From Escherichia coli (GTDB lineage: Bacteria > Pseudomonadota > Gammaproteobacteria > Enterobacterales > Enterobacteriaceae), in assembly GCF_003334765.1 (NCBI RefSeq), contig NZ_QOWT01000014.1: a DNA stretch of 64,000 nucleotides, one strand, 5' to 3'. Every line of letters begins with the position of its first letter. Positions within the stretch are counted from its first letter, which is position 1. The notes beneath the pieces were generated by a model. It was not told the DNA's origin. It ran no database searches and worked only from the letters and a program-made list of their open reading frames with translations. The position numbers were made by a program, and so were the translations under genes. Positions 25,555 through 51,200 of the stretch are shown one piece after another.

Positions 25555-25654
25555 CATATTGCTGACAAAGTGCGCTTTGTCCATGCCGGATGCGGCGCGA
25601 ACGCCTTATCCGGCCTACAAAAGTTTGCAAATTCAATAAATTGCAGAATTCATG
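25555..25654. repeat. REP pair with AT-rich central spacer (BIME-1/RIP-type)
   Basis: TGCCGGATGCGGCGCGAACGCCTTATCCGGCCTAC ... GTAGGCCTGATAAGCGAAGCGCATCAGGCA. Confidence 0.85.
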
Positions 25655-25738
25655 TAGGCCTGATAAGCGAAGCGCATCAGGCATTTTTGCTTCTGTCATC
25701 GGTTTCAGGGTAAAGGAATCTGCCTTTTTCCGAAATCA

Positions 25739-26881: not shown

Positions 26882-27784
26882 TTATGAAAGCATAGACCGT
26901 TTACCCTCCCTGGGTACGACGGAACAGGGGTCCTGATGGATAATTACATCCGATCCCGGAAAACGCCGTAAAATAGCCTGCTCTACCTGATCCGCCACCA
27001 TATGTGCCTGAACCAAAGGCAGAGAGTCTTCCATTTCCAAATGAATCTGAATAAAGCGGGTCGGCCCTGACTGCCGCGTGCGAAGATCGTGAGCGCCGCT
27101 AACACCCGGCCAGGAAGTCACGATATCAATAATTTCTTGCCGTTCCTCATCAGGCAATGCGCGATCCAGTAATGACTGTACCGCCTCATATCCCATGCGT
27201 AACGCGCTATATAAAATATAGATGCCGATTCCCAATGCAAACAGAGCATCGGCGCGATGCCAGCCGTACCAGGACAACCCCAGCGCCAGCAGAATTGCGC
27301 CGTTCATCATAACATCAGACTGGTAATGTAGCATATCAGCCCGCACCGCCTGGCTTTGCGTCCGCCGCACCACCCAACGCTGAAACGAGACAAGGATAAT
27401 CGTACAAATTAGCGCCACAATTGTCACGATAACCCCGACGCCTGGATCTGTCATCGGTGTTGGAGATATCAGATGTTGAATACCCGTCAAAAACAGGAAT
27501 AGTGCCGAACCGGAGATAAACATACTTTGCGCCAGCGCCGCGAGGGACTCAGCTTTACCGTGACCAAACGAGTGATTATCGTCGGCAGGTTGCAGGGAAT
27601 ATCGCACCACCAATAAATTCGTCAACGACGCGCCGATATCCACCAGCGAATCCACCAGCGCGGCGAGAATACTCACCGACCCGGTATACCACCATGCAAA
27701 AATTTTAATCAGCAATAGCAGCGAAGCCATCGCCGTCGCAGCAATCGCCGCCCGACTGACCAGCCGTCCATAAGATTGATTCAT
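26882..27784 (-). CDS. fieF: cation-diffusion-facilitator Fe/Zn efflux transporter FieF (YiiP)
   Basis: Track ORF 306 aa; ATG at 27784 gives 300 aa [35 protein letters not shown]. Confidence 0.92.
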
Positions 27785-27865
27785 AAATACTCCCGCTATC
27801 AACTGACGCTAGTATAACGGAAGCAAATCATCTGCAATGCATTAAGCAGCAGGCAAATTGAGGAT

Positions 27866-27923
27866 AAAAAAAACCCCCACAGCATGTGGGGGAAGACAGG
27901 GATGGTGTCTATGGCAAGGAAAA
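27866..27923 (-). ncRNA. cpxQ: CpxQ sRNA, processed from the cpxP 3'UTR; includes the cpxP intrinsic terminator
   Basis: Minus strand reads TTTTCCTTGCCATAGACACCATCCCTGTCTTCCCCCACATGCTGTGGGGGTTTTTTTT, matching my memory of CpxQ; terminator CCCCCA-CATGCT-GTGGGGG then T8. Confidence 0.75.
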
Positions 27924-27932
27924 CAGGGTTTA

Positions 27933-28433
27933 CTACTGGGAACGTGAGTTGCTACTACTCAATAGCTTCAACGATGAACTTTTTTGCCATTGCGTCACGT
28001 CACGCAACTGCTCCATTCGTTGTTGATGTTTCTCGTTTAAAACCGCTTGCTGCTCCGGCGTTAACAGGCGATACATTTGGTTGCGGACTTTTGCCATCTC
28101 AACCTGACGAGCAATTTGCTCATTCGCCATTTTTTCTGCCTGTGCGCGCACAGCGTTTTCATCAAAATTTTCTGCGGTGACAAGGCGATGCATTGTCTCC
28201 AGTTCGCTAACATTAACAGGAGGCTGTTCGTGCCGGGCCTGTTGCATAAGATCTCGCATCTGCTGACGCTGATGTTCGGTTAAACTTATGCCGTCGAACA
28301 TATGGCTCTGCGTACTGCGCTGCGTAAGTTCTTCACCCGGATGCCAGTTATCGCCTGAACCGACTTCAGCAGCGTGGCTTAATGAACTGACTGCCAGCGT
28401 TGAGGCCATGACGGCAGCGGTAACTATGCGCAT
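27933..28433 (-). CDS. cpxP: periplasmic Cpx-pathway inhibitor/chaperone CpxP
   Basis: 166 aa from second [28 protein letters not shown]...; LTxxQ motifs. Confidence 0.94.
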
Positions 28434-28512
28434 CATTTGCTCCCAAAATCTTTCTGTCGCGATTCAACGATAGAGAGTTTACGATTCAGGCTGCAAACAT
28501 GCGTCAGGGGGT

Positions 28513-28527
28513 GTAAAACAACGTAAA
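28513..28527. promoter_or_regulatory. CpxR box in divergent cpxP/cpxRA control region
   Basis: GTAAA-ACAAC-GTAAA matches CpxR consensus GTAAA-N5-GTAAA. Confidence 0.8.
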
Positions 28528-28582
28528 GTCATGGATTAGCGACGTCTGATGACGTAATTTCTGCCTCGGAGGTATTTAAACA

Positions 28583-29281
28583 ATGAATAAAATCCTGTTA
28601 GTTGATGATGACCGAGAGCTGACTTCCCTATTAAAGGAGCTGCTCGAGATGGAAGGCTTCAACGTGATTGTTGCCCACGATGGGGAACAGGCGCTTGATC
28701 TTCTGGACGACAGCATTGATTTACTTTTGCTTGACGTAATGATGCCGAAGAAAAATGGTATCGACACATTAAAAGCACTTCGCCAGACACACCAGACGCC
28801 TGTCATTATGTTGACGGCGCGCGGCAGTGAACTTGATCGCGTTCTCGGCCTTGAGCTGGGCGCAGATGACTATCTCCCGAAACCGTTTAATGATCGTGAG
28901 CTGGTGGCACGTATTCGCGCGATCCTGCGCCGTTCGCACTGGAGCGAGCAACAGCAAAACAACGACAACGGTTCACCGACACTGGAAGTTGATGCCTTAG
29001 TGCTGAATCCAGGCCGTCAGGAAGCCAGCTTCGACGGGCAAACGCTGGAGTTAACCGGTACTGAGTTTACCCTGCTCTATTTGCTGGCACAGCATCTGGG
29101 TCAGGTGGTTTCCCGTGAACATTTAAGCCAGGAAGTGTTGGGCAAACGCCTGACGCCTTTCGACCGCGCTATTGATATGCACATTTCCAACCTGCGTCGT
29201 AAACTGCCGGATCGTAAAGATGGTCACCCGTGGTTTAAAACCTTGCGTGGTCGCGGCTATCTGATGGTTTCTGCTTCATGA
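28583..29281 (+). CDS. cpxR: envelope stress response regulator CpxR (OmpR family)
   Basis: 232-aa ORF MNKILLVDDDRELTSLLKELLEMEGFNV...; receiver plus winged-helix domains. Confidence 0.97.
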   Translation: MNKILLVDDDRELTSLLKELLEMEGFNVIVAHDGEQALDLLDDSIDLLLLDVMMPKKNGIDTLKALRQTHQTPVIMLTARGSELDRVLGLELGADDYLPKPFNDRELVARIRAILRRSHWSEQQQNNDNGSPTLEVDALVLNPGRQEASFDGQTLELTGTEFTLLYLLAQHLGQVVSREHLSQEVLGKRLTPFDRAIDMHISNLRRKLPDRKDGHPWFKTLRGRGYLMVSAS

Positions 29282-30663: not shown

Positions 30664-30746
30664 CAGGCAGGATAAGGCGTTTACGCCGCATCCGGCATTT
30701 GAGCAGGATGCCTGATGCGACGCTGATAGCGTCTTATCAGGCCTAC
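30664..30746. repeat. REP pair downstream of cpxA
   Basis: AGGATAAGGCGTTTACGCCGCATCCGGCA ... GCCTGATGCGACGCTGATAGCGTCTTATCAGGCCTAC. Confidence 0.85.
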
Positions 30747-39533: not shown

Positions 39534-39753
39534 CTGCCGGATGCGGCGCGAGCGCCTTATCCGGCCTACGGGTCGGCAACAGTTGTAGGCCTGATAAGAC
39601 GCGACAGCGTCGCATCAGGCATTGATTGCCGGATGCGGCACAAGTGCCTTATCCGGCCTACAGGTCGGCAATAGTTGTAGGCCTGATAAGACGCGACAGC
39701 GTCGCATCAGGCATTGATTGCCGGATGCGGCGCGAGCGCCTTATCCGGCCTAC
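39534..39753. repeat. BIME: five alternating REP units in rhaA-rhaD spacer
   Basis: CTGCCGGATGCGGCGCGAGCGCCTTATCCGGCCTAC alternating with inverted GTAGGCCTGATAAGACGCGACAGCGTCGCATCAGGCA; about 80-bp unit repeated nearly identically. Confidence 0.9.
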
Positions 39754-48246: not shown

Positions 48247-51200
48247 ATGCAGGTCAGCAGAAGGCAGTTCTTTAAGATCTGCGCTGGCGGTATGGCAGGC
48301 ACCACGGCAGCGGCACTGGGTTTTGCACCCAGCGTAGCACTCGCGGAAACCCGGCAGTATAAACTGCTGCGCACCCGCGAAACCCGTAATACCTGCACCT
48401 ATTGTTCCGTAGGCTGTGGGCTGTTGATGTACAGCCTCGGTGACGGAGCAAAAAACGCCAAAGCATCTATCTTCCATATCGAAGGCGATCCGGATCACCC
48501 GGTCAACCGCGGTGCACTTTGTCCGAAAGGCGCTGGCCTGGTGGATTTCATCCACTCCGAAAGCCGTCTGAAGTTTCCGGAATACCGTGCGCCAGGTTCT
48601 GATAAATGGCAGCAAATCAGTTGGGAAGAGGCGTTTGATCGCATCGCCAAACTGATGAAAGAAGACCGCGATGCTAACTACATTGCGCAAAACGCCGAAG
48701 GCGTGACTGTTAACCGCTGGCTCTCCACCGGGATGCTGTGTGCTTCCGCGTCGAGTAACGAAACCGGCTATTTAACGCAAAAATTCTCCCGCGCGCTGGG
48801 TATGCTCGCGGTCGACAACCAGGCGCGTGTCTGACACGGACCAACGGTAGCAAGTCTTGCTCCAACATTTGGTCGCGGTGCGATGACCAACCACTGGGTC
48901 GACATCAAGAACGCCAACCTCGTCGTGGTGATGGGCGGTAACGCCGCTGAAGCTCACCCGGTCGGGTTCCGCTGGGCGATGGAAGCCAAAATTCACAACG
49001 GCGCGAAGCTGATTGTGATCGATCCTCGCTTTACGCGTACGGCGGCGGTAGCTGACTACTATGCCCCTATTCGTTCCGGTACTGACATTGCTTTCCTGTC
49101 AGGCGTATTGCTGTACCTGCTGAACAATGAAAAATTCAACCGCGAATACACCGAAGCCTATACCAACGCCAGCCTGATCGTGCGTGAGGATTACGGCTTT
49201 GAAGATGGCCTGTTCACCGGCTACGACGCGGAAAAACGCAAGTACGATAAATCCTCCTGGACTTATGAACTGGACGAAAACGGCTTCGCCAAACGCGATA
49301 CCACGCTGCAACATCCGCGCTGCGTGTGGAACTTGCTGAAACAGCACGTTTCCCGCTACACGCCAGATGTGGTTGAAAACATCTGTGGTACGCCAAAAGA
49401 CGCGTTCCTGAAAGTCTGCGAATACATCGCAGAAACCAGTGCTCACGATAAAACTGCCTCGTTCCTGTATGCCCTCGGCTGGACGCAACACTCCGTTGGT
49501 GCGCAAAACATTCGTACGATGGCGATGATCCAGCTGCTGCTCGGCAATATGGGGATGGCAGGCGGCGGCGTTAACGCCCTGCGCGGTCACTCCAATATTC
49601 AGGGGCTGACGGACCTGGGGCTGCTGTCGCAGAGCCTGCCAGGTTACATGACGCTGCCAAGCGAGAAGCAGACCGATCTGCAAACCTACCTTACCGCCAA
49701 CACGCCAAAACCGCTGCTGGAAGGCCAGGTAAACTACTGGGGCAACTACCCGAAATTCTTCGTCTCTATGATGAAGGCCTTCTTTGGTGATAAAGCGACG
49801 GCGGAAAATAGCTGGGGCTTTGACTGGTTGCCGAAGTGGGATAAAGGCTACGACGTCCTGCAATACTTCGAGATGATGAAAGAGGGCAAGGTCAATGGCT
49901 ATATCTGCCAGGGCTTTAACCCTGTTGCCTCATTCCCGAACAAAAACAAAGTGATCGGTTGTCTGTCGAAACTGAAGTTCCTCGTCACCATCGACCCACT
50001 GAACACTGAAACCTCTAACTTCTGGCAGAACCACGGTGAGCTGAACGAAGTTGACTCGTCGAAGATCCAGACCGAAGTGTTCCGTCTGCCATCGACCTGC
50101 TTCGCGGAAGAGAACGGTTCTATCGTTAACTCAGGTCGCTGGTTACAGTGGCACTGGAAAGGTGCGGACGCCCCGGGGATTGCGCTGACTGACGGCGAGA
50201 TCCTCTCCGGTATCTTCCTGCGCTTGCGCAAGATGTATGCCGAACAGGGTGGCGCGAACCCGGACCAGGTGCTGAACATGACATGGAACTACGCCATTCC
50301 GCATGAGCCATCTTCAGAAGAAGTGGCGATGGAGAGCAACGGTAAGGCGCTGGCCGATATTACCGATCCGGCAACCGGTGCGGTTATCGTCAAGAAAGGC
50401 CAACAACTTAGTTCGTTCGCCCAATTGCGCGATGACGGTACAACCTCCTGTGGCTGCTGGATTTTCGCCGGTAGCTGGACGCCGGAAGGCAACCAGATGG
50501 CACGCCGTGATAACGCCGATCCGTCTGGCCTCGGTAACACGCTGGGCTGGGCATGGGCATGGCCGCTTAACCGCCGCATTCTGTATAACCGCGCCTCCGC
50601 AGATCCGCAGGGTAACCCGTGGGATCCGAAGCGTCAGTTGCTGAAATGGGACGGCACTAAGTGGACCGGCTGGGATATTCCGGACTACAGCGCAGCGCCT
50701 CCGGGTAGCGGCGTCGGGCCGTTTATCATGCAGCAGGAAGGCATGGGGCGTCTGTTTGCCCTCGATAAGATGGCGGAAGGTCCGTTCCCGGAACACTACG
50801 AGCCGTTTGAAACGCCGCTGGGAACTAACCCGCTGCATCCAAACGTTATCTCGAACCCGGCTGCACGTATCTTTAAAGACGACGCCGAAGCATTGGGTAA
50901 AGCCGATAAGTTCCCGTATGTCGGAACCACCTATCGTCTGACCGAGCACTTCCACTACTGGACCAAACACGCGCTGTTGAACGCGATTTTGCAGCCAGAG
51001 CAGTTTGTGGAAATCGGGGAGTCGCTGGCGAATAAACTTGGCATTGCCCAGGGCGATACCGTGAAAGTCTCCTCCAACCGTGGCTATATCAAAGCCAAAG
51101 CGGTGGTGACCAAACGTATTCGCACGCTGAAAGCGAACGGCAAAGATATCGATACCATCGGTATTCCGATTCACTGGGGCTATGAAGGCGTAGCTAAAAA

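Follow-up and report, generated by a model that had tools for sequence, protein, structure and literature searches.

The window (the whole stretch of DNA that was analysed, 64,000 nucleotides of the Escherichia coli contig NZ_QOWT01000014.1) carries the cpxP coding sequence, the gene of the small regulatory RNA CpxQ and fieF next to each other on its minus strand (table 1). The DNA is E. coli K-12-like: over the 200 nt compared, the minus strand of the cpxP-fieF region is 100% identical to that of MG1655 (NC_000913.3), in which the ncRNA gene cpxQ (b4716, 'small regulatory RNA CpxQ') is annotated at 4106330..4106387, between cpxP and fieF. This identity places cpxQ at window positions 27923..27866, and alignment with the curated NC_000913.3 ncRNA gave 58 of 58 identical nucleotides. 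Thus, the initial annotation, which had recognized CpxQ in the minus-strand sequence 3' of cpxP and had called it a known element, was right on both counts, the gene being curated in E. coli K-12 as cpxQ and experimentally characterized in the literature. CpxQ of Salmonella enterica and E. coli was reportedly the subject of work by Chao & Vogel in 2016 and by Grabowicz et al. in 2016. At the level of the species, an 801-nt query taken from the locus found matches in all the 5,426 complete E. coli genomes, with at least 99% identity in 5,421 of them and 100% identity in several K-12 strains.

The cpxP reading frame closes with a TAG at 27935-27933, directly followed by an in-frame TAA, and the 5' end of CpxQ is found 9 nt past the TAG. 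The order 3' of the stop codon is therefore UAAACCCUG (9 nt, outside the mature RNA) and then the 58 nt of mature CpxQ, UUUUCCUUGCCAUAGACACCAUCCCUGUCUUCCCCCACAUGCUGUGGGGGUUUUUUUU. The interval initially proposed (27866-27932) contains the whole of CpxQ, but it also takes in these 9 nt that precede the mature 5' end. The distance of approximately 80 bp to the fieF start agrees with the 81 nt measured between the end of the T-run and the ATG of fieF. The description of fieF as convergent had to be corrected, because fieF lies on the same minus strand as cpxP, and the two genes are in tandem. The two in-frame stops, TAG TAA (27930..27935), are only 6 nt away from the CpxQ processing site. In PGAP-annotated E. 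coli records, cpxP and fieF are the only features present at the locus.

Table 1. Features of the cpxP-fieF locus and related matches. Coordinates are window positions, except where a comparative locus (L number) is named.
Feature	Coordinates	Strand	Basis
cpxP coding sequence, parental mRNA of CpxQ	27933..28433	-	ORF list and MG1655 annotation
mature CpxQ sRNA, 58 nt (gene cpxQ, b4716)	27866..27923	-	100% identity to NC_000913.3 cpxQ
processing site G/UUUU making the CpxQ 5' end	27923..27924	-	annotated 5' end at 27923; RNase E cleavage according to the literature
invariant sRNA body (nt 1-31), including the 5' seed UUUUCCUUGCCA (nt 1-12)	27893..27923	-	conservation and published seed
small predicted stem-loop AGACA-CCAUCCC-UGUCU (nt 14-30)	27894..27910	-	RNAfold and RNAalifold
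Rho-independent terminator (cpxP terminator and 3' Hfq-binding module of the sRNA)	27866..27892	-	terminator scan and fold
attB core of WPhi-type P2-like phages, 47 bp (CpxQ nt 15-58 plus 3 nt, AUC)	27863..27909	-	direct repeat at prophage ends
fieF	26882..27784	-	co-directional with cpxP
CpxR box GTAAA-N5-GTAAA, cpxR-cpxP intergenic region	28513..28527	+	sole exact match in the 64-kb window
other Rfam matches (SECIS_3, naRNA4, ClpQY promoter, L31 leader, ES036)	48829..48887, 30666..30743, 39588..39750, 11911..11968, 7247..7299, 25620..25661, 6226..6267	+, +, -, +, -, +, - (in the same order)	
RF02628 matches in three Erwiniaceae loci	L032 5697-5771, L105 1298-1373, L019 360-430	antisense to cpxP	
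loci with a WPhi-type integrase homologue	L010, L012, L023, L030, L058, L017, L102, L120, L098, L086, L002		

That the RNA ends in the cpxP terminator with a run of eight T residues, as had been stated at the outset, was borne out by a terminator scan, which returned an 8-bp stem with six GC pairs and a 3-nt loop at 27892..27874, followed by T8 at 27873..27866. The terminator consists of the stem CCCCCACA/UGUGGGGG, the loop UGC and a U8 tail. Folding of the 67-nt interval 27866-27932 gave −17.4 kcal/mol (z = −2.4, with 2 of 200 shuffled sequences folding as well) and resolved it into a small 5-bp stem-loop and the terminator. For the AGACA/UGUCU stem of the former, the same base pair is present at each of the five positions in 71-72 of 72 sequences among the matches listed; with pairs that are essentially invariant, covariation neither supports nor contradicts the stem. 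As to the terminator, folding of each sequence separately revealed a GC-rich hairpin of 5-9 bp followed by a run of 6-9 T residues in all 72 homologous loci among the matches listed, the '0 bp' returned for four Photorhabdus sequences stemming from a TTTTT loop that was parsed wrongly. Across these 72 loci the arms of the stem take at least 20 different sequences, all of which can still pair. RNAalifold did not call the terminator on the MAFFT alignment, because the variable stem arms are out of register, and per-sequence folding was used instead. Position 42 of CpxQ (27882, minus strand), in the terminator loop, differs among the sequences: the window has the K-12 type UGC, and a UGA loop is found in E. 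albertii, in most other Enterobacteriaceae of the set, in the attP copies of phages and in both att copies of a lysogen. From this distribution, the C at this position in K-12 may be a derived allele.

The consensus of the CpxR box is GTAAA-N5-GTAAA. The exact sequence occurs once in the 64-kb window, versus 0.09 occurrences expected by chance, and a promoter scan of positions 27600-28700, including the inside of cpxP, found no sigma-70-like promoter. The lack of an internal promoter in that region, together with the single CpxR box, is in keeping with dependence of the RNA on the cpxP promoter. The processing site of CpxQ has been detected by TIER-seq, and the sequence preferred by RNase E has been defined as RN|WUU, with U at +2 (PMC5222698). 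At the cut site, UG/UUUU, the UUU from +1 to +3 fits the WUU part of the motif, and position −2 is a U, not the preferred purine. The U-run that opens CpxQ is invariant in 72 sequences among the matches listed. According to a review, RNase E cuts CpxQ from the cpxP mRNA, and Hfq both guides the cut and protects the product (PMC9438474). Stabilization by Hfq (PMC4817254), a 58-nt species on Northern blots of E. coli (PMC6755755) and a half-life of over 16 min (PMC10250213) have also been reported.

For the comparative analysis, a species-representative genome collection was scanned with the DNA pattern CCTTGCCA-N(6-11)-TCCCTGTCT, which gave at least 120 loci. Among the matches listed, cpxP and/or fieF lie beside the motif in 73, all from Enterobacterales; without exception, the 71 with a detectable cpxP (CpxP protein identity, 36-98%) have the motif on the sense strand of that gene, with the start of CpxQ 6-102 nt past the stop codon. 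The other 47 of the 120 matches listed show neither gene, come nearly all from unrelated phyla and are plausibly chance matches, approximately 200 of which were estimated in the present analysis to be expected in 298 Gb. Two Enterobacterales loci (L042 and L073) are among these 47 and may be too short to show the neighbouring genes. Since selection of the loci relied on an exact 17-nt motif, only the positions left free by the pattern were counted, and the values given here describe constraint where CpxQ exists and not how widespread it is. At the 14 pattern-free positions of the body, mean identity to E. coli is 99.5%, with full identity in 67 of 71 loci among the matches listed, and the block UUUUCCUUGCCAUAGACACCAUCCCUGUCUU is nearly invariant in the same set. 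Over the final 150 nt of the cpxP coding sequence, mean identity is 64% in the 71 loci listed, versus a shuffled baseline of approximately 50%, and the 50 nt past the T-run are at chance level (51%, equal to the baseline, in the 71 loci listed). On these alignments, the sRNA body, with its co-varying terminator, is extremely conserved, and more so than the coding sequence of cpxP.

Such a pattern bears directly on the simplest alternative, namely that the region is just an intrinsic terminator preceded by an inert cpxP 3'UTR with no function in trans. A strong terminator is indeed present, and any 3'UTR ending in one would fold in a similar way. However, the 31 nt that precede the terminator are almost invariant even where the CpxP proteins are only 36-60% identical, and a terminator has no need of a body that is far more conserved than the coding sequence. 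Furthermore, regulation in trans has been published for E. coli, including the phenotypes of deletion and overexpression (PMC4817254, PMC6755755, PMC10250213), so that an inert 3'UTR is very improbable.

The published targets of CpxQ in E. coli include skp, nhaB and cfa, all of which are repressed (PMC4817254, PMC10250213, PMC6755755), the repression of nhaB being documented in PMC10250213. The 5' end of the RNA has been identified as the seed for nhaB and cfa (PMC6755755). By lowering Skp, CpxQ averts the mistargeting of outer-membrane proteins into the inner membrane (PMC4817254), and a preprint of 2024 has added FadL and fatty-acid metabolism to its field of action (10.1101/2024.10.18.618624). 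Complementarity was calculated here as compact duplexes between the 5' end of CpxQ (from nt 1 to about nt 14-16) and 24-nt windows of the MG1655 target mRNAs. The best duplexes were found at −17..−5 of skp (the Shine-Dalgarno region), at −15..−4 of nhaB (the translation-initiation region) and at −134..−126 of cfa, the last one coinciding with the published 5'UTR region; 3-13% of shuffled seeds score as well as the real one, which makes the duplexes consistent with pairing and not decisive. Unrestricted RNAduplex runs against the whole target mRNAs yielded duplexes that contain very large loops and do not surpass those of shuffled sequences. As a separate observation, the best duplex of CpxQ nt 1-12 with MG1655 nhaB, on GGUAAGGGAAAC in the translation-initiation region (13% of shuffles as good), disagrees with the report that the site used in this region of the Salmonella mRNA is not conserved in E. 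coli, where the coding-sequence site alone remains (PMC10250213).

Detection of CpxQ by family models is less straightforward. At the gathering threshold Rfam gave no match at the CpxQ locus, and with Rfam 15 nothing matched the CpxQ strand. Significance was reached solely by RF02628 (Hrs1), on the plus strand at 27866..27938 (41.4 bits, E = 9e-7), at a score below the gathering value of 56.4 bits; the other matches obtained at the locus with permissive settings are weak terminator look-alikes such as NsiR1 and anti-hemB. In Erwinia persicina, E. aphidicola and Pantoea stewartii the same model exceeds gathering, with 61-83 bits, and there, too, it matches the strand opposite cpxP; all the RF02628 matches found are antisense to both cpxP and CpxQ. 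Elsewhere in the window, Rfam matches above gathering were obtained for SECIS_3 (a selenocysteine insertion element), three naRNA4 (repeat-type elements), the ClpQY promoter element, the L31 ribosomal leader and two ES036.

Taken at face value, the orientation of the RF02628 matches, and in particular the three Erwiniaceae loci that exceed gathering, would place a functional RNA on the plus strand. However, the model opens with an unpaired A-run followed by a hairpin, namely a terminator read backwards, and on the plus strand neither a T-run after the hairpin nor a promoter-like site is present. Moreover, in the paper from which the family derives, hrs1 is located between cpxP and fieF in the orientation '> > >', that is co-directional with both genes, and has a Rho-independent terminator, a Northern signal and dependence on Hfq (PMC4070566), and the curated E. 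coli cpxQ is on the cpxP strand. A plus-strand RNA at this position is thus hardly credible. From the backwards terminator in the model and the published co-orientation it follows that Hrs1, classed as Erwinia-specific in its source paper (Zeng & Sundin 2014, PMC4070566), is the CpxQ orthologue of Erwinia, and the RF02628 model appears to be reverse-complemented and to represent in reality a CpxQ family. No publication joining the names CpxQ and Hrs1 was found within the literature searched. The practical consequence is that CpxQ is missed by automatic Rfam-based annotation, the only related family being Hrs1, seeded with Erwinia sequences and apparently modelled on the wrong strand.

A second property of the locus emerged from the complete E. 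coli genomes. In 831 of the 5,426, no single match covered 80% of the 801-nt query, and in the five of these 831 that were listed the match ends at window position 27863, 3 nt past the T-run. The two that were examined carry a P2-like prophage between cpxP and fieF, with the integrase adjoining cpxP. The prophage of NZ_CP077477.1 is P2-like, approximately 32.3 kb long and bounded at both ends by a direct repeat of 47 bp that corresponds to window 27909..27863. At its cpxP-side junction full-length CpxQ is rebuilt with one substitution in the terminator loop, and at the fieF-side junction an orphan 44-nt CpxQ fragment is kept with its terminator. This is the result of the phage carrying its own copy of the CpxQ segment, so that integration restores the complete RNA and leaves the fragment before fieF. 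The core is also present, with 46 of 47 positions identical, in the free phage genomes of WPhi, fiAA91-ss and P24B2 and in about 50 other phage records; the integrase of the prophage is over 99% identical to that of L-413C and related phages; and the att core is flanked by TGTGGAC arm-type repeats that match the P2-type arm consensus (PMC3448106). The possibility that ogr of the prophage uses the orphan CpxQ copy as its terminator was considered and rejected, ogr having a hairpin and T-run of its own upstream of the att arm repeats. One E. coli lysogen (NZ_CP135458.1; L123 6068-6555), whose match to the window reaches only 97.6% identity, has cpxP annotated as a pseudogene with a frameshift.

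Outside E. coli, a homologous integrase, in some cases only as a fragment, is found 160-310 nt downstream of CpxQ and antisense to it in 11 of the 71 loci listed, which belong to Photorhabdus, Erwinia, Rosenbergiella, Acerihabitans and one MAG. The occurrence of integrases past CpxQ in several genera makes it seem that the same RNA 3' end serves as an integration site across families. Overall, the evidence leans towards the 3' two-thirds of cpxQ being the attB of WPhi-type P2-like phages, used in approximately 15% of complete E. coli genomes, with WPhi-type integrases at the corresponding place in Photorhabdus, Erwinia, Rosenbergiella and Acerihabitans, and with integration rebuilding CpxQ and leaving an orphan copy. 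Lysogeny might then subtly alter the expression of CpxQ or fieF. The attB of WPhi is said to have been studied by Karlsson et al. in 2006. In E. coli W, the Wphi1 prophage is recorded at 'cpxP-fieF' and P2-type prophages at 'cyaR RNA' (PMC3032704), and because they are listed in that paper, both the WPhi site and the general pattern were already known. Within the literature searched, no publication linking CpxQ, prophage and attB was found, nor any that presents the site as an sRNA gene, and CpxQ and integrase occur together only in a paper on fatty-acid metabolism. It is now possible to place the WPhi site within a gene for an sRNA, and this adds to the cases of temperate phages that target the conserved 3' ends of RNA genes.

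That CpxQ nt 15-58 and the next 3 nt make up the 47-bp att core, and that prophages or integrase genes sit at the locus in many genomes, raises the question of whether the conservation is due to the attachment site rather than to the sRNA. This is very unlikely, given that the host gains nothing from keeping an attB and that phages typically adopt sites that are already conserved, that the same invariance extends to CpxQ nt 1-14, which lie outside the core, that free variation between genera is seen in the terminator arms, which lie within it, and that most loci have no prophage. None of the three alternatives (inert terminator, antisense RNA, attachment site) agrees with the pattern of conservation, the evidence on the strand and the published experiments.

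The reading of window 27866..27923 (minus strand) as cpxQ, the 3' sRNA released by RNase E and Hfq from a CpxR-driven cpxP transcript and repressing mRNAs in trans, is regarded as practically established (probability approximately 97%), and none of the observations speaks against it. The present analysis contributes identity, position, strand, terminator, conservation, the CpxR box, the lack of an internal promoter and seed complementarity, and the literature contributes RNase E cleavage, Hfq dependence, stability and target repression. In the scheme that results, envelope stress would activate CpxR, which would bind the box at 28513-28527 and promote transcription of cpxP up to the hairpin and U8 tail. 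RNase E and Hfq would then, as reported in the literature, cut the transcript between G27924 and U27923, a few nt past the stop codon, to free a stable 5'-monophosphate RNA. Through its invariant, anti-Shine-Dalgarno-like 5' seed (UUUUCCUUGCCA) and its middle region, CpxQ would pair with mRNAs such as those of nhaB, skp and cfa (in Salmonella, agp, ydjN and fimA would be partners), and pairing would either block translation or promote decay by RNase E. CpxQ would thus act as a cytoplasmic riboregulator that eases the load on the inner membrane, CpxP being a periplasmic protein, and with such a cleavage scheme one transcript would yield both the protein and the riboregulator.

CpxQ, the non-coding arm of the Cpx response to inner-membrane stress, is the textbook case of how cleavage near the end of a protein-coding mRNA gives rise to a regulatory RNA. 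The element found here is already known and annotated, as well as experimentally characterized, so that the initial identification was correct and the finding in itself is an ordinary one: its presence in this window merely confirms a correct annotation.

When set beside known systems, the RNA of the window does not differ from CpxQ of E. coli K-12 (b4716) in sequence, position, terminator or length (58 nt). SroC, SdhX, NarS and GlnZ resemble it in being mRNA 3' ends that are released by RNase E, keep the parental terminator and act in trans (PMC9438474). They differ from it in their parental genes, seeds and regulons, and in that CpxQ, unlike them, covers almost the whole 3'UTR of a monocistronic mRNA. 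Hrs1 of Erwinia amylovora shares with CpxQ the position between cpxP and fieF, the orientation, the dependence on Hfq and the terminator, along with the sequence blocks CCUUGCCA and UCCCUGUCU; what sets the two apart is the Rfam model of Hrs1, which appears to be the reverse complement of the RNA and with which E. coli remains below gathering.

As an insertion site, cpxQ is comparable with cyaR (RyeE), the site of phage P2, and with the tRNA and tmRNA att sites, where an RNA gene likewise hosts the prophage. In 186-type phages, long att cores keep the tRNA gene intact after insertion (PMC3448106), and this rebuilding is paralleled by that of cpxQ at the junction of the WPhi-type prophage. Unlike cyaR and the tRNA/tmRNA sites, however, the WPhi site, whose description predates the naming of CpxQ, was classed as intergenic.
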